From the sequence record AP025670.1: a DNA stretch of 64,000 nt, one strand, 5' to 3'. The position numbers and the translations under genes are program-made. Each line of letters begins with the position of its first letter. The first letter of the stretch is position 1. The notes under the pieces are model-generated. The model had not been told where the DNA came from, did not search any database, and worked only from the letters and a program-made list of their open reading frames with translations. This document shows, one piece after another, positions 2,570 through 11,280 of this stretch. The DNA is from a plasmid.

Positions 2570-2815
2570 ATGGCTCAGGTCACAGTAAAAAAATGGGGCA
2601 ATAGCCCGTCTGTACGGCTTCCTGTTGCAATCATGCAAAAAGCGGCACTTAGCGTTGATGATACGGTTGAAATAGCGGTAGAAGAAGGTCGTATCATCAT
2701 TACGCCAGTTAAAGCAGTAGAATACTCATTAGAAAATTTGTTAGCCGGTATCACGCCGGAGAATATTCATGAGAAAGTAGACTTCGGAGCTCGAACAGGT
2801 AAGGAATTAATTTAA
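2570..2815 (+). CDS. MazE/PemI/ChpBI-family antitoxin (AbrB/SpoVT fold)
   Basis: 81 aa with the motif VKKWGNSPSVRLPVAIM typical of MazE-family antitoxins. Its stop overlaps the toxin start (taATGg). Confidence 0.8.
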   Translation: MAQVTVKKWGNSPSVRLPVAIMQKAALSVDDTVEIAVEEGRIIITPVKAVEYSLENLLAGITPENIHEKVDFGARTGKELI

Positions 2816-3147
2816 TGGTATCTCGATACGTTCCTGATTCTGGCGATTTGATTTGGATTGACTTTGATCCAGTTGAAGGACATGAGCAGGGCGGTCATCG
2901 TCCAGCAGTTGTCCTCAGCCCATTTGCATACAATAATAAAGTAGGGCTCTTATTATGCGTACCATGTACAACTAAGGGCAAAGGCTATCCATTTGAATGC
3001 GAACTCTCGAACGAAAGAGACAGCTACGCATTAGCGGATCAAGTTACATGTGTTGACTGGAGAGCTCGTAAGGTTACTAAAAAGGGCAAAGTGGAGGCAT
3101 CAGAACTGGCAGAGATAAAAGCTAAAGCAAAGGCGTTAATAGGTTAG
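2815..3147 (+). CDS. MazF/PemK/ChpBK-family endoribonuclease toxin
   Basis: 110 aa with motifs PDSGDLIWIDFDP and GHEQGGHRPAVVLSP characteristic of MazF/PemK. Confidence 0.85.
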   Translation: MVSRYVPDSGDLIWIDFDPVEGHEQGGHRPAVVLSPFAYNNKVGLLLCVPCTTKGKGYPFECELSNERDSYALADQVTCVDWRARKVTKKGKVEASELAEIKAKAKALIG

Positions 3148-3643: not shown

Positions 3644-3787
3644 TTACTTATCACAAGATAGCGTAGCTTGAACCACTGTGCCTCCGCTTGTGAAATTTAG
3701 TGAACATAAGCGATCACGCATTAACAATGAGAAGCACAGAACTGTGATGCACACAGCAATCAGCCCAATCAGGGCAAATTTGCTCAT
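3644..3787 (-). CDS. hok: Hok/Gef-family type I toxin (47 aa), absent from the ORF track
   Basis: Manual translation of the minus strand gives MSKFALIGLIAVCITVLCFSLLMRDRLCSLNFTSGGTVVQATLSCDK. It aligns with the Hok/HokB core (LIICITILTFTLLTR..LYELRF). The segment VCITVLCFSLLMRDRLCSL matches the transmembrane helix plus the R-x-x-L-C-E/S motif. Confidence 0.65.
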   Translation of the reverse strand: MSKFALIGLIAVCITVLCFSLLMRDRLCSLNFTSGGTVVQATLSCDK

Positions 3788-4151
3788 TTCTCTTGACTCC
3801 TTGAGTAAAAGGAGACAGAATCAAATTGCGAAGTTTGTAGACTGCCTCGAATTAAGGGTTATACCTGATTCGGGGCTTTCGTCTTTTTGGCTCGTATCAA
3901 TGCTCGAACCAAAATGATTCAAGCACCCAAAACGATATTAGCAGATTATTATTAATTGCAATACTATTTATTATTAATAATATTTGTTTGTTTTTATGAT
4001 ATTTCTTTAAGTATTTTAATATAAATGGCTCATACTAACTTGAATTGAATAATATCAATTATATATTTAAATATTCTATGAAATCACCATATATTAGTGG
4101 TGGGTATAATTTTATTTACACCCACATGTTATTAATACCTTTCAATAAACC

Positions 4152-4982
4152 TTAATAGCTACCTTTGTAGCAAGTAGAGATGAATTGTAATTCTCCGTTA
4201 TTAGATATTTTTGAGTGTAGCACATCAATGCTATATTTAATCATAAAATCTGAAATCTCTTTTGTACAAAAGCTATTCTTCCATTTAGATATTCTTGATA
4301 TGTTTTGTTCAAAAGCAAACGCATCAACATCTGCATTTTTAAGAGAGAGTAACTTTTTATCTGTGGTATCAAAATTTAGCATATAAGTATTAACCGGACT
4401 AGACATCGTTTGTGTAACACCAATATATTTAACATCCCACGCATTAGTTTTATTGAATGAATTGGTTATGTACTCATCTAGCCAGATGTTTATCTTATCC
4501 ATTTCATCCTTAGATGTTTCCTTCTTGTCAATAAAATCATTTCTACTAAATATATATGTTTTTAAGGTTTCTCCGTTAACAACATCTCTTATAGTTAGCA
4601 CATTGTTTGCCGTAGAGAAAAATATCTGTGGTTCAGACAGATCAGCACCATACCAACGAGCATTGGGTAAGTTTTCGTCAAAGAAACTTAGTCTGTTTGT
4701 TGACTCTTTTCTACACAGATATGAAAAGAGTTTACCATCTTGGCTTCTTATGTATCTAATTCTACTGATATTATTTGAAATTTCCGTCGATTGCATTATA
4801 TCTATATCACGATCATATATGGTAGATAATCCTGCTTTACAAATTTCTGATAGTGAAAATGACATTTGACTTTCAGCGGAAATCGCATTTTGGATATGTG
4901 TGATACTCAATGATAAGACTGCAAATAAAATTAATTTATTGGCTTTCACATTTTTTCCTTTATTTTTACTATAAATTAGCAC
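4152..4982 (-). CDS. hypothetical secreted protein
   Basis: 276 aa with an N-terminal signal-like segment (KANKLILFAVLSLSITHIQNAISA). No family assignment. AT-rich. Confidence 0.4.
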   Translation of the reverse strand: MLIYSKNKGKNVKANKLILFAVLSLSITHIQNAISAESQMSFSLSEICKAGLSTIYDRDIDIMQSTEISNNISRIRYIRSQDGKLFSYLCRKESTNRLSFFDENLPNARWYGADLSEPQIFFSTANNVLTIRDVVNGETLKTYIFSRNDFIDKKETSKDEMDKINIWLDEYITNSFNKTNAWDVKYIGVTQTMSSPVNTYMLNFDTTDKKLLSLKNADVDAFAFEQNISRISKWKNSFCTKEISDFMIKYSIDVLHSKISNNGELQFISTCYKGSY

Positions 4983-5351
4983 TTATAGAATTATAAAAAT
5001 TTATAATTATAGCTACATGGTAGCTATTCAATTGATTCTGATATTACCAAAAAAAGGAAATCACTAATCAGTGTATTAAACCTACTTTCTACCCACAAAT
5101 TCATAATACAAGTTACATTATGGATTTTAATCATCAATAATGTGCAATATATCACCGAGTATTGTTATATTTGCAATAATATCTATGTTTTAACTTTTGG
5201 ATGATAAATCCTTGTGTTACTCTTTACTCGGTTAAATATACGTTTAATGTAGTAACTTTTTTTATTTTATGATTTATGGTTAATGATGCTATTTGATGCA
5301 CCAGAATTCACCACAATTTTCACACCAATTTTCAGCACCAAGGAGGCACTG

Positions 5352-6308
5352 ATGGGAGAGTTAATTTTACGTGACACCGTAACAGATATTGTTGATGTAA
5401 ATAACATGACGAAAAACACCAACAATCCAGCAACCAGCTACTTGCTACGGCTCCGTTCCAAACAAAGTCAAAAGACAATGCGATCCTGTCTAGTGTCAGT
5501 GGTGAAATTGTTTCGTGCTATGGACCCGTTTACTTTCGATTGGTCAATCATGGATCGAGATGCCGTTCAATTGGTACTTCAGAAATTAATACTGGAGAAA
5601 AAGACCCCAAATAGTATCAACTTGATATTGAGTGCCATTAAAGGGGTGGCTGAAGAAGCCAGAGCATCACGAGTCATAGATAGTGATACATATCAGGATA
5701 TTAGAAGCATACGCCGGATTCGTGGGAACCGTATTGGTCGAGGGCGTTCACTGAGTAGTAGTGAAATAACGCACATTTATCAGCATCTTGATAGCATAAA
5801 TACCGCAGTCTCGGTACGTGATGCAGCGATTGTATCATTAATGCTTGGCTGTGGTTTGCGCCGTGCTGAAGTCACTTTGTTGGATATGGAAGATATCAAT
5901 TTTGATAATTACTCCATTAAAATCATGGGTAAAGGAAACAAAGAAAGAACTAACTTCATGCCAAGTGACACGCTCCGTCGTATTCGCTTATGGATAGAAA
6001 CTGTAAGAGGGGATCATACCGGTGCAGTTTTTACCCGCATACGTAAAAATGATGATGTAACTTGCGATAGAATAACAACCGATGGTTTACGGTATATTAT
6101 TGATAAATTGGTGAAAGATTCAGACTCAGATTCATTTACACCGCATGATTGCCGACGAACCTATGCCACTAAGTTGTTAGAACTAGGTGAGGACCTACTT
6201 ACTGTCAGAGAAGCTATGGGACACAGTAGTGTCGCTACTACACAGCGATATGATAAACGAGGTGTAACACGCTTAGAGGCTGCTGCACGTAATCTGCAAT
6301 ATTATTAG
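5352..6308 (+). CDS. int: tyrosine site-specific recombinase/integrase
   Basis: C-terminal catalytic motifs: R at LRRAEV, then HDCRRTYATKLL, then GHSSVATTQRYD (R-H-R-Y). The start was chosen at the ATG preceded by AAGGAGG (5352). The ORF could extend to 5283. Confidence 0.8.
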   Translation: MGELILRDTVTDIVDVNNMTKNTNNPATSYLLRLRSKQSQKTMRSCLVSVVKLFRAMDPFTFDWSIMDRDAVQLVLQKLILEKKTPNSINLILSAIKGVAEEARASRVIDSDTYQDIRSIRRIRGNRIGRGRSLSSSEITHIYQHLDSINTAVSVRDAAIVSLMLGCGLRRAEVTLLDMEDINFDNYSIKIMGKGNKERTNFMPSDTLRRIRLWIETVRGDHTGAVFTRIRKNDDVTCDRITTDGLRYIIDKLVKDSDSDSFTPHDCRRTYATKLLELGEDLLTVREAMGHSSVATTQRYDKRGVTRLEAAARNLQYY

Positions 6309-6321
6309 AGATATAACACAA

Positions 6322-7161
6322 ATGAGATCACAATCGCATTTTGTAGAAACTGAAGCTATAAAGATAGTCCACAATCAGATACCCAGTAAAAATTGGGTGT
6401 TACGTTCCATTGGTGAAAGAGATTACGGCTCAGATTTCATGATTGAGCTTTTTGATAATAAAGAATCAACTGGTGATTGTTTTTTTGTACAATCCAAAGG
6501 CACTGAAAAAACATTTACAGAAGATGTAAAAATCAGCTTTCCTGTTAACACTATAAAATATGCAATGCTATTTAACGTACCATTTTTTTTGTTTTATACG
6601 TCTATCACTTCAAAGCAAACAAAATTTATTTGGTTACAAAAATATACTAACTTAGTGCTTAATGAAAAAAATTGGGAAGATAAAAAGTCAATAACAATCT
6701 ATTTTCCAGAAGAAAATGACCTCTCTAAAAATAGAGAAAAAATAATCAAATTACTTGCAAATAGCCGTGCAGTTAATGATTTTATATCATTTAAGCATAC
6801 AATCGAAAATTTGAAATTTTGGGGTGAAATGGTCATATATAACAATGATTATTATCATGGCAGTAAATGCATAGAATTATGTCACAAAATCAATGACATG
6901 AAAAATGTAATTTTATATGCATCTGAACTATATGTTGATGATAGTTGCCCTTTTGAAATGAGAACTCAGTATCAGAAACTTAGAATTAATAAAATGATTT
7001 CCACATTTAATAAATTCATTAAATATAAAAAAACAACAAATAAAAAGATTAACTTTATTAAAAAACAATTTGAAATATTAGATTGCATTTGTAATGACAT
7101 TATTTCTTCATCAGAATTAGAAAGATGGGGTTATGAGTCTGAAGCCTTAATTCCATTTTAA
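6322..7161 (+). CDS. DUF4365-like predicted PD-(D/E)xK nuclease-domain protein
   Basis: The N-terminus ETEAIKIVHNQIPSKNWVLRSIGERDYGSDFMIELF...FFVQSKG fits the DUF4365 / restriction-endonuclease-like D..(D/E)xK pattern, assigned from memory. The C-terminal 150 aa is unknown. Confidence 0.45.
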   Translation: MRSQSHFVETEAIKIVHNQIPSKNWVLRSIGERDYGSDFMIELFDNKESTGDCFFVQSKGTEKTFTEDVKISFPVNTIKYAMLFNVPFFLFYTSITSKQTKFIWLQKYTNLVLNEKNWEDKKSITIYFPEENDLSKNREKIIKLLANSRAVNDFISFKHTIENLKFWGEMVIYNNDYYHGSKCIELCHKINDMKNVILYASELYVDDSCPFEMRTQYQKLRINKMISTFNKFIKYKKTTNKKINFIKKQFEILDCICNDIISSSELERWGYESEALIPF

Positions 7162-7181
7162 TTTATTTTGAGATAATTATA

Positions 7182-8192
7182 ATGAGAAATTTAACCACAT
7201 GGACTTGTTCCGAAATAACAAAGTTGATTGGGACTATTGACGAACCATTCTTCATTGAAAAAATATGCAAATTTACCGGACGTAGTGTAAATGATGTCCT
7301 CTCTAAATTGTTGCACATGGGATTGTGTGAAATAAACTATAAGGATAATAAGATATCTACGGCTAGGAATACAAATTTAAACCATCTCATTCCTTATTCA
7401 TCATTTATTCCTAAATTATTAGAACTTGGTTGGATATATGAGTTATTAAATAGGGAGGAATCTCTTAAAGCCCCCAAGTGGTGGGTAAATAATGATCAGT
7501 TCCCTATAAGTAACACTATCGAATTGAATCGTAATGAAACAGTATGGGTTAATGAGGAAATTCATACAGTTATCTCCATGATACAAAACAAGATGAACCT
7601 AAGCTCAATCGCAAATAAAATACATAGAAATCAATCATCTATTACCGCAATGTTAATAGATCTTGGTATTTTAGAATGCATTGATAAACAAGAAATCTTT
7701 TTGTCTGAAGTTAATGAATTGAAACTTTCAAAGTATACATTTAATAATGCGCTTGTTCTTATTAATCATGGATGGGTTGTTACCAACAATAATTTATCTG
7801 CGCCTAATTGGTGGCTTGAAAATAACAAGGATAATAAGAATGTTCATAATAGCCACTACGATGAAAGGAAAGAAATAACCGGTAATGATAGCAGACAATT
7901 GTATATGTTTATTAAATCAGAATTAGAGGGCATACTAAACACTATTCATGAAAATAAGCGTATCGAAGAATTGTCAGATGTAACGTATTTAGGTTATACA
8001 CTTGCAGATTTAACGACCTACATTGGTATTACTTCAGTTAAGGTAGCAGGGCAGGTCACAAAGAACAATAAAACCCACATGAGCTATTTTATGGATAAAC
8101 CTTATAATATAAAGAAAATGTTGATTAACTTTGGTTGGAAAGTTTCAGATGATTCATTAGCAGCTCCTGAATGGTGGTCTAATGAAGAATAA
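7182..8192 (+). CDS. hypothetical protein with three internal ~105-aa repeats, each an HTH-like segment plus GW...AP-x-WW motif
   Basis: The three repeats end in KAPKWWVNND, LSAPNWWLENN and LAAPEWWSNEE. Each is preceded by LGWIYE, HGWVVT or FGWKVS, and by a helix-turn-helix-like stretch. Confidence 0.5.
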   Translation: MRNLTTWTCSEITKLIGTIDEPFFIEKICKFTGRSVNDVLSKLLHMGLCEINYKDNKISTARNTNLNHLIPYSSFIPKLLELGWIYELLNREESLKAPKWWVNNDQFPISNTIELNRNETVWVNEEIHTVISMIQNKMNLSSIANKIHRNQSSITAMLIDLGILECIDKQEIFLSEVNELKLSKYTFNNALVLINHGWVVTNNNLSAPNWWLENNKDNKNVHNSHYDERKEITGNDSRQLYMFIKSELEGILNTIHENKRIEELSDVTYLGYTLADLTTYIGITSVKVAGQVTKNNKTHMSYFMDKPYNIKKMLINFGWKVSDDSLAAPEWWSNEE

Positions 8193-8604
8193 ATACATCT
8201 CTTTCATTCAAATTATTTTTTTTACCGTTGCTTGTGTATATCCAGCGTATTTATTAATACGCAGAAAAAACATAATTGATATTTCCATGTTAATATTTAT
8301 TGTATTAATTGCAGTAATTGGAGATTTTATTGAGTGCATAACATTAATTGAATTATCTAAGATGTTAGCATCATTCTTTCTTATTGCAATTTATGTGAAT
8401 TGCTACCGCAGCTATTTTAAGTACTCTAAAAGTAATATTGATTTAATTAGTTTTAAAGCAGTAGATAATAAGATGGGGTATCTTGTTTTTTCCAGTGAAA
8501 CTATATGTTATTTCTTGCCTTTAAAAATAAGTAGCCACTTTAATATGTTATGGTTTTATGGATATTTGAAAGCCATAACCATGCACCTTCAAAATAGAAA
8601 GTGA
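8182..8604 (+). CDS. hypothetical membrane protein
   Basis: 140 aa, strongly hydrophobic. Its start overlaps the stop of the preceding gene. Confidence 0.35.
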   Translation: MKNKYISFIQIIFFTVACVYPAYLLIRRKNIIDISMLIFIVLIAVIGDFIECITLIELSKMLASFFLIAIYVNCYRSYFKYSKSNIDLISFKAVDNKMGYLVFSSETICYFLPLKISSHFNMLWFYGYLKAITMHLQNRK

Positions 8605-8684
8605 TACTTTTAAGACTGTTTACTAAGAAAAAAGATACCATATAACGGGTACATTGCCTTTTTAATTTCTGAAGGCTGAAGCTC

Positions 8685-9434
8685 ATGAACTTCATAAGTA
8701 CCCTTATTCTTGCACTTATCCTACGAATTCTTTACCTCATATATCGAAAACGTAAGCCTAGTTTTTATACTGTTAGCTTGGTAATAATATCAGTTATTGT
8801 GTGGTCCGTTAAATCCTACCTATTGGACTATTACATTATCCCAACATCCTCTATGGCACCGACATTAAAAGCCGGTGATCTCATTTTTGCAAAGCCGGTT
8901 GACACGCAAAAAGAGCAATTGATGCGTGGAGATATCGTGATTTTCCGAGCTCCTGCATTCCCTTCATTCATTTATGTAAAACGCATAATCGGATTGGCTG
9001 GCGATACTATCACTTATGCCGATGATAAGTCAGTCCAGATCAACGGAAGGATGATCGGGCAGCTAAACCATCATAATGACCATACGAGTACCTATCAGGC
9101 GCTTCAGGAACGTAATGCGCAACAATATGAGTACGTCATTGATAACCGTAAACCATTCGTTAAGCCAATTTATACACAATGGGTAATCCCTGATGGATAT
9201 GTTTTTGTTCTTGGCGATAACAGGGATCACTCATGGGATTCACGGTTTTTTGAAAATGCAGTTGGAACTCCAAGGCATTTGCGAGGGCTTGTTAAAAAGG
9301 AACTTTTGATAAGCCGGTATTTAGCCACGGCTTTTACACTTGAGTTTATGAAAAGCGATTTTGATATAGGGGAGAATAGCTTAAAAGTAATTTCTGAAGC
9401 TCAAACGGCAGAGGGGAATGATGGGGATAAATAG
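8685..9434 (+). CDS. signal peptidase I (S26 family; LepB/TraF-like)
   Basis: N-terminal transmembrane segment. Catalytic-Ser box SSMAPTLKAGD. The KR in YVKRIIGLAGD and the motif GDNRDHSWDSRFF are conserved S26 boxes. Confidence 0.8.
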   Translation: MNFISTLILALILRILYLIYRKRKPSFYTVSLVIISVIVWSVKSYLLDYYIIPTSSMAPTLKAGDLIFAKPVDTQKEQLMRGDIVIFRAPAFPSFIYVKRIIGLAGDTITYADDKSVQINGRMIGQLNHHNDHTSTYQALQERNAQQYEYVIDNRKPFVKPIYTQWVIPDGYVFVLGDNRDHSWDSRFFENAVGTPRHLRGLVKKELLISRYLATAFTLEFMKSDFDIGENSLKVISEAQTAEGNDGDK

Positions 9435-9771
9435 AAGCTGTATCGCATTAGTTTGCTTTTTCTTGTCATCTTGTGGTTCTACCACAGGGGCGATCACTAC
9501 ACACGAGCATCTTGTGACGCAAGCCACACAAGATAAGCATGTCAGTTCAGGTGGCTTCGACAGAGTAGCTGATACCTATGTACTGGCAAGAGAGATTACT
9601 GGTCTTGAATCCAACGAAATAAAGCAACTCTATGAGGTGAAGGGGAGTGACAACACATTAATAAAAATTGATATGGCATCTATACCATGCTCGATATTGC
9701 TTAAAAAGAACACAAGTCAAAGTAGTGAGATTTGGCTTATAACTGATATGGGTTGCAATGAATATTTATAA
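9418..9771 (+). CDS. putative lipoprotein
   Basis: A signal peptide ending FFLSSCGS forms a lipobox-like Cys. Overlaps both neighbouring genes. Confidence 0.4.
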   Translation: MMGINRSCIALVCFFLSSCGSTTGAITTHEHLVTQATQDKHVSSGGFDRVADTYVLAREITGLESNEIKQLYEVKGSDNTLIKIDMASIPCSILLKKNTSQSSEIWLITDMGCNEYL

Positions 9772-10344: not shown

Positions 10345-11280
10345 ATGAGAAGAAAGCGTAGATTTAAGAAACGAAATCCCTATGTAACTAATATGAATAT
10401 TGCATTTATATTCTATATGACCACTCTGGTATTTCTTAGATTTGATTCTATTGCGAGAGTTTTAACTTTAGTAATACCTTTATTTGCTGTTTATATATTG
10501 TCACCTAGCAGCAAAATATTGAGGTTACACAAGAGAAAGAAACCTGAATGGGCTTCAGTGGGAATCAAAAGAAATGCCCCTCTATTAAACCCTCAAGTTG
10601 CATTAGTGATAATTGCTGTTACCACAATAACTGTATTTTTTCTTCGTTATGACCATGTAATAACAACGAAAATCATACAACTGATATGGGGAGATATAAA
10701 AACAGCATATGCTGATATTTTCGGGAAAAGCAGTGCGAATAAATTATTCTCTCTGAGGAATATCCCAGTTTGTACATATTATACATTCCATATATTACGT
10801 TCATGCGTTGCATTTCTGCTCGTGGCTTATTCAGCAAGTGTCTATTTTCGTTATAAACAACAAACTATGTTTAAAAAGGTACTTTTTAATGCCACCTATC
10901 ATGAAGATGCATTGCAATTTATCCGAGAATTATCATGGCGAGAATTTGAGGAATTTATAAGAGAGTTATTCAACAGCCTTGGGTACAGAGCTACTGTCAC
11001 TAATTATGGTCCAGATGGTGGGAAAGATATCATTATGGAACGTGATGGAATCAAAGTTTTCGCTCAATGCAAACACTGGAAATCTGACAATGTAGGTGTT
11101 GCTATCGCCCGTGAAATGGTTGGTGTACTAGAAGCAGAACCCGAATTTAAGCATGTATTTCTAGTCACATCAGGTAAGTTTTCTAACGATGCAGTTCTAT
11201 ACAGTCACAGAACATCTGACCGTCTGACACTCATGGACGGAAAAATGATAGCCGATAAATTATTGCTGTTAAGAAAGTAA
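10345..11280 (+). CDS. membrane-anchored Mrr-like (PD-(D/E)xK) restriction endonuclease-domain protein
   Basis: The N-terminal ~170 aa is hydrophobic with multiple transmembrane helices. The C-terminus SWREFEEFIRELFNSLGY...YGPDGGKDIIMERDGIKVFAQCKHWKSDNVGV matches the Mrr catalytic core (D...D/E-x-K). Confidence 0.6.
   Translation: MRRKRRFKKRNPYVTNMNIAFIFYMTTLVFLRFDSIARVLTLVIPLFAVYILSPSSKILRLHKRKKPEWASVGIKRNAPLLNPQVALVIIAVTTITVFFLRYDHVITTKIIQLIWGDIKTAYADIFGKSSANKLFSLRNIPVCTYYTFHILRSCVAFLLVAYSASVYFRYKQQTMFKKVLFNATYHEDALQFIRELSWREFEEFIRELFNSLGYRATVTNYGPDGGKDIIMERDGIKVFAQCKHWKSDNVGVAIAREMVGVLEAEPEFKHVFLVTSGKFSNDAVLYSHRTSDRLTLMDGKMIADKLLLLRK

Follow-up and report, generated by a model that had tools for sequence, protein, structure and literature searches.

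The 64,000-nucleotide stretch of plasmid DNA analysed here (sequence record AP025670.1; the window) contains, at positions 6322–8604, three co-oriented open reading frames (ORFs): gene 1 for a protein with a DUF4365 domain, gene 2 for a protein built of three repeats (the repeat gene), and gene 3 (ORF3) for a small membrane protein. A first-pass annotation, made from the sequence alone, had described them as tightly packed, AT-rich genes for products of 279 and 336 amino acids (aa) and a membrane protein, and this description is accurate to the nucleotide (table 1). The GC content of the locus is 29–32%, compared to about 36–40% across most of the other backbone; 13 nucleotides (nt) separate gene 1 from the tyrosine recombinase gene (int) upstream, 20 nt separate it from the repeat gene, and the repeat gene and ORF3 overlap by 11 nt.

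The same annotation took the recombinase for the integrase of an island and the three genes for its cargo, and this view had to be abandoned. Positions 1–28000 of the window are the backbone of a conjugative plasmid of Morganellaceae that belongs to the previously described pPrY2001-like family (PMC6737455) and to the MOBH/MPF_F type, as read off the matched plasmid records examined. A region of 3.5 kb is 100% identical in the Proteus mirabilis plasmid pIB_NDM_1 and three further plasmid records, and 73 plasmid records (63 typed as conjugative) were matched, with hosts from Providencia, Proteus, Moellerella, Morganella and E. coli. The backbone order is ParG–ParA, MazEF, a membrane ORF, Hok/Sok, a secreted-type ORF of 276 aa and the recombinase; then DUF4365, the repeat protein, ORF3, an S26 peptidase (lepB), a lipoprotein, GDSL and a membrane protein with an Mrr_cat domain; and, after further genes, UvrD-like, traA, MobH and TraD. 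The recombinase is a plasmid backbone gene beside ParA/ParG, MazEF and Hok/Sok, and the array of co-oriented genes extends past 8604, through lepB, GDSL and Mrr, to about 13310. A search of positions 4800–9600 found no terminator-like site on the + strand between int and lepB, promoter-like sites at chance level only, and no convincing DNA repeat families or binding sites.

Table 1. Features of the locus and its surroundings in the window. ORF coordinates of genes 1–3 are exact. Nucleotide identity was profiled along the region against a sister plasmid; synonymous divergence (dS) was computed against pPrY2001.
Feature	Position	Strand	Product, domain or match	Identity to sister plasmid	dS
ParA			upstream of Hok/Sok, as is ParG		0.02
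MazEF	2570–3147		upstream of Hok/Sok
Hok/Sok-type post-segregational killing locus	3678–3928	sok on −	Rfam sok, 74.8 bits
ORF of 276 aa	4152–4982	−	signal-peptide-like N-terminus; 28.8% GC; no family match
int	5352–6308	+	XerC/D-like tyrosine recombinase of the backbone; Pfam Phage_integrase (PF00589), 104.9 bits, 5.1e-30	81–99%, mostly >90%	0.44
Gene 1 (DUF4365 protein)	6322–7161	+	279 aa		1.8
Gene 1, N-terminal domain	6322–6771	+	DUF4365 nuclease domain, about aa 1–150; Mrr-like residues D38, Q57-x-K59	60–78% (nuclease half)
Gene 1, C-terminal domain	6772–7161	+	hypervariable, about aa 151–279; without family assignment	about 40%, unalignable (6745–7147)
Gene 2 (repeat gene)	7182–8192	+	336 aa	83–96% (past first 90 nt)	0.23
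Repeat unit 1	7182–7499	+	aa 1–106
Repeat unit 2	7518–7829	+	aa 113–216
Repeat unit 3	7884–8189	+	aa 235–336
Gene 3 (ORF3)	8182–8604	+	140 aa		0.47
lepB	8685–9434	+	S26 signal-peptidase-like; Pfam Peptidase_S26, 2.6e-36		0.09
GDSL					0.02
Mrr	10345–11280	+	311 aa; Mrr_cat nuclease domain at the C-terminus (Pfam, 5.4e-23), about three hydrophobic segments at the N-terminus		0.08

The product of gene 1 is predicted to be a nuclease-type protein of the PD-(D/E)xK, Mrr-like kind. Its aa 10–141 match positions 2–134 of the 139-position Pfam profile DUF4365 (PF14280) with 58.2 bits (cut-off 24.3; E = 1.2e-15), and the residues D34, D38 and Q57-S-K59 are invariant in an alignment across seven homologues of 30–87% identity. 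The first-pass assignment to DUF4365-like nucleases was correct as to the family; the motif needed amending, the putative catalytic signature being the Mrr-like D38 ... Q57-S-K59 and not E-x-K. A PADLOC model of a restriction endonuclease associated with prokaryotic Argonautes (Aga_REase) matches aa 3–90 weakly (8.6e-7), and the Mrr_cat and mREase_IV models, which represent type IV, Mrr-type methyl-directed restriction, do not match. Searching PDB sequences with the DUF4365 protein returned nothing significant, and the C-terminal domain has no match in Pfam or among PDB sequences.

Full-length relatives of gene 1 (about 272 aa; 72 homologues) are found singly elsewhere. One in Gluconacetobacter lies between insertion sequence (IS) elements, another adjoins HEPN_Apea and an integrase, and one in Acinetobacter is part of Tn7 cargo together with a methyltransferase, PRTase-CE/ORC-CDC6-like genes, HipA and a type I-F CRISPR system. 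A relative in Burkholderia is accompanied by Vsr, Abi_C and a methyltransferase, one in Janthinobacterium abuts a BsuBI/PstI restriction-modification pair, and one in Vibrio cholerae sits in an integron-type cassette array; over aa 1–151, gene 1 shares 49% identity with P0109, a cassette protein of V. cholerae with 278 aa. DUF4365 is also known as the DREN effector nuclease of SPARDA, which, when activated, breaks down DNA and RNA without specificity (PMC10810196, PMC12205087), and as the nuclease part of Divona, a single-gene anti-phage cassette from the chromosomal integron of Vibrio cholerae (bioRxiv 10.1101/2024.07.02.601686). Gene 1 shares with SPARDA DREN the PF14280 domain and the PD-(D/E)xK/Mrr-like core, in line with the weak PADLOC match. 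However, DREN is fused to APAZ and accompanied by an adjacent short Argonaute, whereas the domain of gene 1 is fused to a hypervariable domain of ~130 aa; Pfam and PADLOC detected neither APAZ nor Argonaute in gene 1 or its neighbours, the recombinase and the repeat protein. Divona, compared by domain description only, likewise combines, in one gene on mobile DNA, an N-terminal DUF4365 Mrr-like nuclease with a differing C-terminal domain. Its C-terminal domain is crr6 (PF08847), which is not detectable in gene 1 (E <= 0.1) or in the related proteins of about 272 aa, including P0109 (E <= 1).

Comparison of the locus between related plasmids reveals that gene 1 evolves fast and that the slot it fills, flanked by int and the repeat gene, is variable. 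At least five DUF4365 alleles with 39–50% protein identity occur in this slot of Morganellaceae plasmids (75 plasmid records), and the flanks of the slot are roughly 90–99% identical between plasmids. The conserved nuclease half and the hypervariable C-terminal half of gene 1 stand apart in the identity profile, and dS peaks at this gene (table 1). The segment from int to ORF3 thus carries an old, recombining polymorphism with its peak at DUF4365, and all four genes of the segment are under constraint, with ratios of nonsynonymous to synonymous divergence (dN/dS) of 0.06–0.30. Divergence fades into the flanking genes without discrete ends, which points to homologous exchange of alleles and not to cassette recombination.

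An integron-like exchange of cassettes by the adjacent recombinase was considered and rejected on this ground, and also because the one candidate pair of sites is not conserved in sister plasmids. The pair consists of the 20-nt sequence TGTTATATTTGCAATAATAT at 5163–5182 on the + strand, upstream of int, and an inverted copy with three mismatches at 6299–6318 on the − strand, which falls exactly at the int stop and the spacer before DUF4365 (chance expectation 0.01 matches). A sister plasmid has the upstream copy without any change, and the downstream copy is absent from both the draft assembly L007 and pPrY2001; the pair may serve a recombinase or a regulator, or it may have arisen in this allele by coincidence.

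The key question is whether the three genes travel together. They are adjacent in all of the 70-odd pPrY2001-like plasmids and in Photorhabdus, and this, along with their tight packing in one orientation, the lack of a + strand terminator from int to lepB, the overlap of the repeat gene and ORF3, and the raised dS over the whole int–ORF3 segment, would suit the first-pass proposal of a single defence or abortive-infection system, in which DUF4365 would be the effector, the repeat protein a DNA-binding sensor, and the membrane protein either an anchor or a further effector. Outside this plasmid clade, however, the co-occurrence breaks both ways. The plasmid of Xenorhabdus sp. TH1 has int (58% identity), the repeat gene (39%), a 139-aa membrane ORF, lepB, GDSL and Mrr, and the DUF4365 slot is empty, the int stop overlapping the start of the repeat gene (ATGA). 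More distant carriers of the repeat protein, namely pKPC_CAV1321-like plasmids of Citrobacter and Klebsiella, 250-kb plasmids of Providencia and Proteus, a Kluyvera contig and a 124-kb metagenomic contig, have neither DUF4365 nor a recombinase near the repeat gene. The repeat and membrane genes occur without DUF4365 in four lineages, and DUF4365 occurs without them in six other genomic contexts. In pPm60-type plasmids (pW17-3-a and pPm60), a class 2 integron region replaces int and cuts DUF4365 at aa 40, thereby removing D38, while the repeat gene (90% identity) and ORF3 remain intact and conserved. Moreover, the alleles reassort: one DUF4365 allele (39.0% identity to that of the window) is paired with ORF3 alleles of 92% or 75%, and another (46.5%) with ORF3 alleles of 84% or 76%.

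As far as these genomes indicate, the three genes do not co-occur as components of a multi-gene defence system would be expected to. Two further points argue against a single system: the repeat protein and ORF3 have no PADLOC match, and the complete repeat unit is rare, with the traced cases syntenic on MOBH plasmids, unlike mobile defence genes. We therefore regard the three-component system as quite improbable. What survives of the proposed defence function concerns gene 1 alone, which is very likely a defence or competition gene, because it is hypervariable, its relatives stand singly in defence islands and a cassette array, and DUF4365 has the aforementioned roles in SPARDA and Divona. The intact predicted catalytic residues, the combination of a conserved nuclease half with a hypervariable C-terminal half, the defence-island sites of the homologues and the dispensability of the gene for the plasmid all fit a stand-alone defence or competition nuclease. 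The pPm60-type truncation characterises a large pPrY2001-like sublineage, where the multidrug-resistance region of the class 2 integron (dfrA1-sat2-aadA1) abuts the cut DUF4365 gene; the recombinase is gone as well, and the resistance region has landed in, and inactivated, the putative defence gene.

The repeat protein has a different history. Its three repeats of ~105 aa, noticed already in the first-pass annotation, are highly significant (pairwise local scores 78–93, compared to 27–31 ± 5 for shuffled sequences; z = 10–11; none of 300 shuffles reached the observed scores). The motif AP(K/N/E)WW occurs at aa 97, 207 and 328, and seven family members, with 21 repeat units between them, show the pattern G-W-x(6-10)-L-x2-P-x-W-W without exception. 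Distant homologues of 385–434 aa, sharing 20–23% identity, also have exactly three units each and keep the invariant motif. That the protein could not be placed in any described family holds as well: no family was matched in Pfam or NCBIfam, and none of PADLOC-DB v2 at E <= 0.1. A profile search of 1.84 billion representative proteins retrieved the complete unit from only a handful of them, and the traceable hosts of the family appear to be MOBH plasmids of Enterobacterales only.

Some insight comes from structure prediction. An AlphaFold model of a single unit, built on 15 repeat units, is confident (pLDDT 86.5, pTM 0.79) and predicts a tri-helical helix-turn-helix (HTH), a three-stranded segment with two helices, a G-W hairpin and a final P-x-W-W helix. 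By fold, the N-terminal half of the modelled unit is a Myb/GcrA-like tri-helical HTH, and a small alpha/beta subdomain bears the G-W...L-x2-P-x-W-W signature. In sequence searches none of the Pfam Myb, GcrA and other HTH models reached threshold (sub-threshold matches: Tra_M 0.035, MarR 0.085, Sigma70_r4_2 0.054), and the repeat-unit profile gave nothing significant in PDB. Alignments to solved structures are confined to the HTH part, and a Foldseek search of PDB with the full-length model, which is poor (pLDDT 58.7), had a best E-value of 0.66, i.e. nothing significant. Among predicted viral structures, Foldseek found three phage proteins of 140–208 aa that match the whole unit (TM 0.70–0.80, E = 3e-5 to 1e-3), and PHROG 10107 aligns to the whole unit of a distant homologue; tblastn against phage genomes yielded one marginal match to the HTH. 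The closest named kind comprises phage and plasmid proteins with tandem HTH repeats that are Myb/SANT- or GcrA-like (for example PHROG 323 and, for the GcrA DNA-binding domain, PDB 5yiu). Compared to these, the unit has an additional subdomain of ~50 aa (strands, helix, GW hairpin and P-x-W-W helix), and in the structure comparisons the whole unit is common only to the three phage proteins and PHROG 10107. The models thus suggest a rare HTH-plus-extension domain, present singly in a few phage proteins and triplicated here.

The genomic position of the repeat gene is informative, too. lepB opens a backbone block whose synteny with the repeat gene holds across every plasmid lineage examined, and lepB homologues with 35–45% identity lie downstream of the repeat-protein homologue in the loci L010, L012, L013 and L015 of our set. 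In three of the four distant lineages, traA and homologues of lepB, Mrr and the two backbone genes that come next lie a few kb downstream of the repeat gene; in the fourth, the 250-kb Providencia/Proteus plasmid, the stretch examined ended before the lepB/Mrr block. The repeat protein and ORF3 constitute a separate module that is inherited with the backbone, holds its place ahead of the S26 peptidase block in four plasmid lineages that diverged deeply, and evolves under purifying selection (dN/dS 0.20 for the repeat gene). Such a syntenic position across lineages of 20% identity, combined with purifying selection, argues for a function in the plasmid backbone over a mobile defence gene. Our best guess, weakly inferred from the modelled fold, is a DNA-binding regulator or architectural protein that works with its co-translated membrane partner.

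In three of the distant lineages the repeat gene is preceded by a gene for a conserved small protein (L013, 11490–11888; L014, 11560–11826; L010, 9430–9852). The protein is 132–140 aa long in two of them, and the annotated length in the third is 88 aa; it is absent from the plasmid type of the window, has the motif G-H-Y-W-C-E ... (S/T)-A-D-Q-F-G-F-E ... W-P-R-Y-I-P-G, and may adopt a cysteine-hydrolase-like fold.

ORF3 is a real gene. In 65 of 66 plasmid records all 140 codons read without interruption, at 75–100% identity, and its dN/dS is 0.26. As first proposed, its start overlaps the end of the repeat gene and its product has a membrane topology: Kyte–Doolittle hydropathy indicates at least two clear transmembrane segments in the N-terminal part (peaks at aa 8–26 and aa 38–56) and possibly a third. 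The ATG is preceded, 8 nt upstream, by a Shine–Dalgarno-like GGTGG. ORF3 is accordingly annotated here as a putative inner-membrane-type protein, probably coupled translationally to the repeat gene. The opposite possibility, that ORF3 is not a gene, was raised by frameshifts in L007 and L002 and rejected, since these fall in homopolymer stretches of draft sequence and all but one of the 66 finished plasmids are in frame; we take the frameshifts in the two drafts to be assembly errors. L002 is the contig of Photorhabdus sp. RM322S, in which both the DUF4365 gene (6319–7112, split into 68 + 212 aa) and ORF3 (8170–8585) are frame-broken and their neighbours intact, reflecting either homopolymer sequencing error or a decay of exactly these two genes in Photorhabdus. 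The gene table of PLSDB for pIB_NDM_1 (NZ_CP045540) has no gene at the position of ORF3, and another search labels the stretch 'hypothetical protein'.

The coupling of a cytoplasmic repeat protein to a small membrane protein brings to mind an envelope module of two genes, independent of DUF4365, that would serve entry or surface exclusion or act as an abortive-infection pair of sensor and membrane effector. In three distant lineages the repeat gene is followed by an ORF for a single-pass membrane protein of 62–63 aa, and the Xenorhabdus ORF of 139 aa occupies the position of ORF3. ORF3 is also more divergent (75%) than nearby backbone genes (97–99%), as specificity determinants often are. Its size and topology, and these two features only, resemble those of the small inner-membrane Eex proteins of related MOBH/MPF_F elements. 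Yet the small membrane ORFs of the different lineages have no detectable sequence similarity to each other, ORF3 has no family match of any kind (Pfam, NCBIfam and PADLOC, with none of the PADLOC-DB v2 families at E <= 0.1), and the repeat gene is shortened in some plasmids (products of 228, 190 and 188 aa). In addition, the locus is not near traG or traN, where the exclusion genes of IncC/SXT relatives are sited (PMC11493245). An envelope module of this kind seems rather unlikely.

The recombinase offers another possible partner for the repeat protein. Its reading frame extends back to 5283; translation probably begins with the ATG at 5352, which is preceded by a Shine–Dalgarno sequence (AAGGAGG); the RefSeq product has 262 aa, as opposed to 318 aa from 5352, a start backed by homologues and by the strong Shine–Dalgarno sequence. 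The protein matches the NCBIfam XerC model (2.8e-39) with 135 bits, far under the cut-offs of the XerC/XerD equivalogs (335 bits). It shares the Phage_integrase domain, a SAM-like N-terminal domain and partition/toxin–antitoxin (TA) neighbours with the plasmid Xer-like recombinases that resolve multimers, but differs from them in falling under the equivalog cut-offs and in being lost from pPm60-type plasmids. Its identity is 94% in pPrY2001, 82% in Photorhabdus and 58% in Xenorhabdus, always with adjoining par/TA genes. The repeat protein might be an accessory or architectural factor of this recombinase, for instance in multimer resolution, with DUF4365 as an unrelated insertion between the two genes. 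Indeed, int and the repeat gene are adjacent but for the DUF4365 slot in the pPrY2001-like, Photorhabdus and Xenorhabdus plasmids, their ATGA overlap in Xenorhabdus indicates one operon, and a protein with three DNA-binding modules would be well equipped to help assemble a recombination synapse. This scenario is nevertheless distinctly unlikely: the CAV1321-like, Kluyvera and metagenomic lineages lack a recombinase within 10–12 kb of the repeat gene, the pPm60-type plasmids kept the repeat gene when int was lost, and no conserved repeated DNA sites were found around int.

Judging from all these comparisons, we assign a probability of about 0.6 to the reading that the locus is composite, combining a hypervariable slot for a stand-alone nuclease with a separate repeat/membrane module of the backbone of a pPrY2001-like plasmid. 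The gene 1 product would then act as a stand-alone Mrr-like PD-(D/E)xK nuclease whose conserved N-terminal domain cuts nucleic acid and whose hypervariable C-terminal domain senses or selects the target, be it a component of an invader or a DNA feature. In this way it may protect the host of the plasmid from phages or competing mobile DNA, forming a single-gene defence with an effector of the SPARDA-DREN/Divona type. The repeat protein, as its predicted fold weakly suggests, might bind plasmid DNA via up to three Myb/GcrA-like HTH modules and, together with its co-translated membrane partner, regulate functions of plasmid maintenance or transfer or play an architectural part in them.

Several observations weigh against this composite reading. 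No PADLOC model recognises the DUF4365 protein as a system, the match being to a domain and weak, and both the nuclease activity of gene 1 and its direction against phages or plasmids are deduced from family and context only; the role of the recombinase as a multimer resolvase is likewise assumed, solely from its position. The repeat protein has a near-neutral isoelectric point of 5.9 (5.3–9.1 in homologues), its third HTH is degenerate in the window and lacks the basic recognition helix of the distant homologues, and positions 4800–9600 contain no candidate DNA repeats for it to bind. Finally, dS is raised across the whole int–ORF3 segment (0.23–1.8, as opposed to 0.02–0.09 outside), so the four genes may sometimes be swapped together, and a functional link between them retains some plausibility. 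A bolder reading is a plasmid module, not recognised so far, in which the repeat protein and ORF3 would act on incoming or resident DNA at the membrane (for example in exclusion or abortive infection) and for which pPrY2001-like plasmids may have recruited DUF4365 as an exchangeable effector. We consider this unlikely; if true, the membrane module with its recruited nuclease would represent a new modular plasmid-borne system of immunity or competition.

In Proteus, Providencia and Morganella, NDM-1 is among the resistance genes that pPrY2001-like plasmids disseminate. That the backbone of these plasmids has a fixed slot for a hypervariable stand-alone nuclease gene suggests an ongoing conflict with phages or rival plasmids, which could shape the hosts and the co-resident elements that these plasmids tolerate. 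Since the DUF4365 family of about 272 aa is widespread in defence islands and PADLOC has no system model for gene 1, the gene is a cheap candidate for single-gene tests. The repeat protein defines a small uncharacterised family carried, where traceable, by large MOBH resistance plasmids, including the pKPC_CAV1321-like ones, and its role, once known, could reveal a backbone function specific to MOBH plasmids. The outcome for the locus is a refined annotation and the correction of an over-read gene adjacency, with no surprise of principle.

The neighbourhood includes further genes of interest. The gene at 10345–11280 is a predicted second defence-type nuclease of the backbone: its product matches the PADLOC candidate PDC-S02 (1.6e-12) and mREase_IV (1.3e-7), and its architecture is similar to that of Epona from the integron defence preprint, which also combines Mrr_cat with transmembrane segments. 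Each of the four MOBH plasmid lineages examined keeps the gene beside the lepB block (29–99% identity). On the other side of the locus, sok was the sole match in an Rfam scan of the backbone, and a Hok/Gef gene is annotated on the − strand at the same position in sister plasmids. The 276-aa ORF at 4152–4982 is 99.6% identical in one sister plasmid, and pPrY2001 has three unrelated small ORFs instead; its site, flanked by hok/sok and the recombinase gene, is a second variable slot. Beyond the backbone (29–40% GC), the GC content rises to 54–64% from about 28 to 46 kb and is about 50% from there up to 64 kb, a sharp shift after 28 kb that is consistent with an acquired resistance or transposon region.

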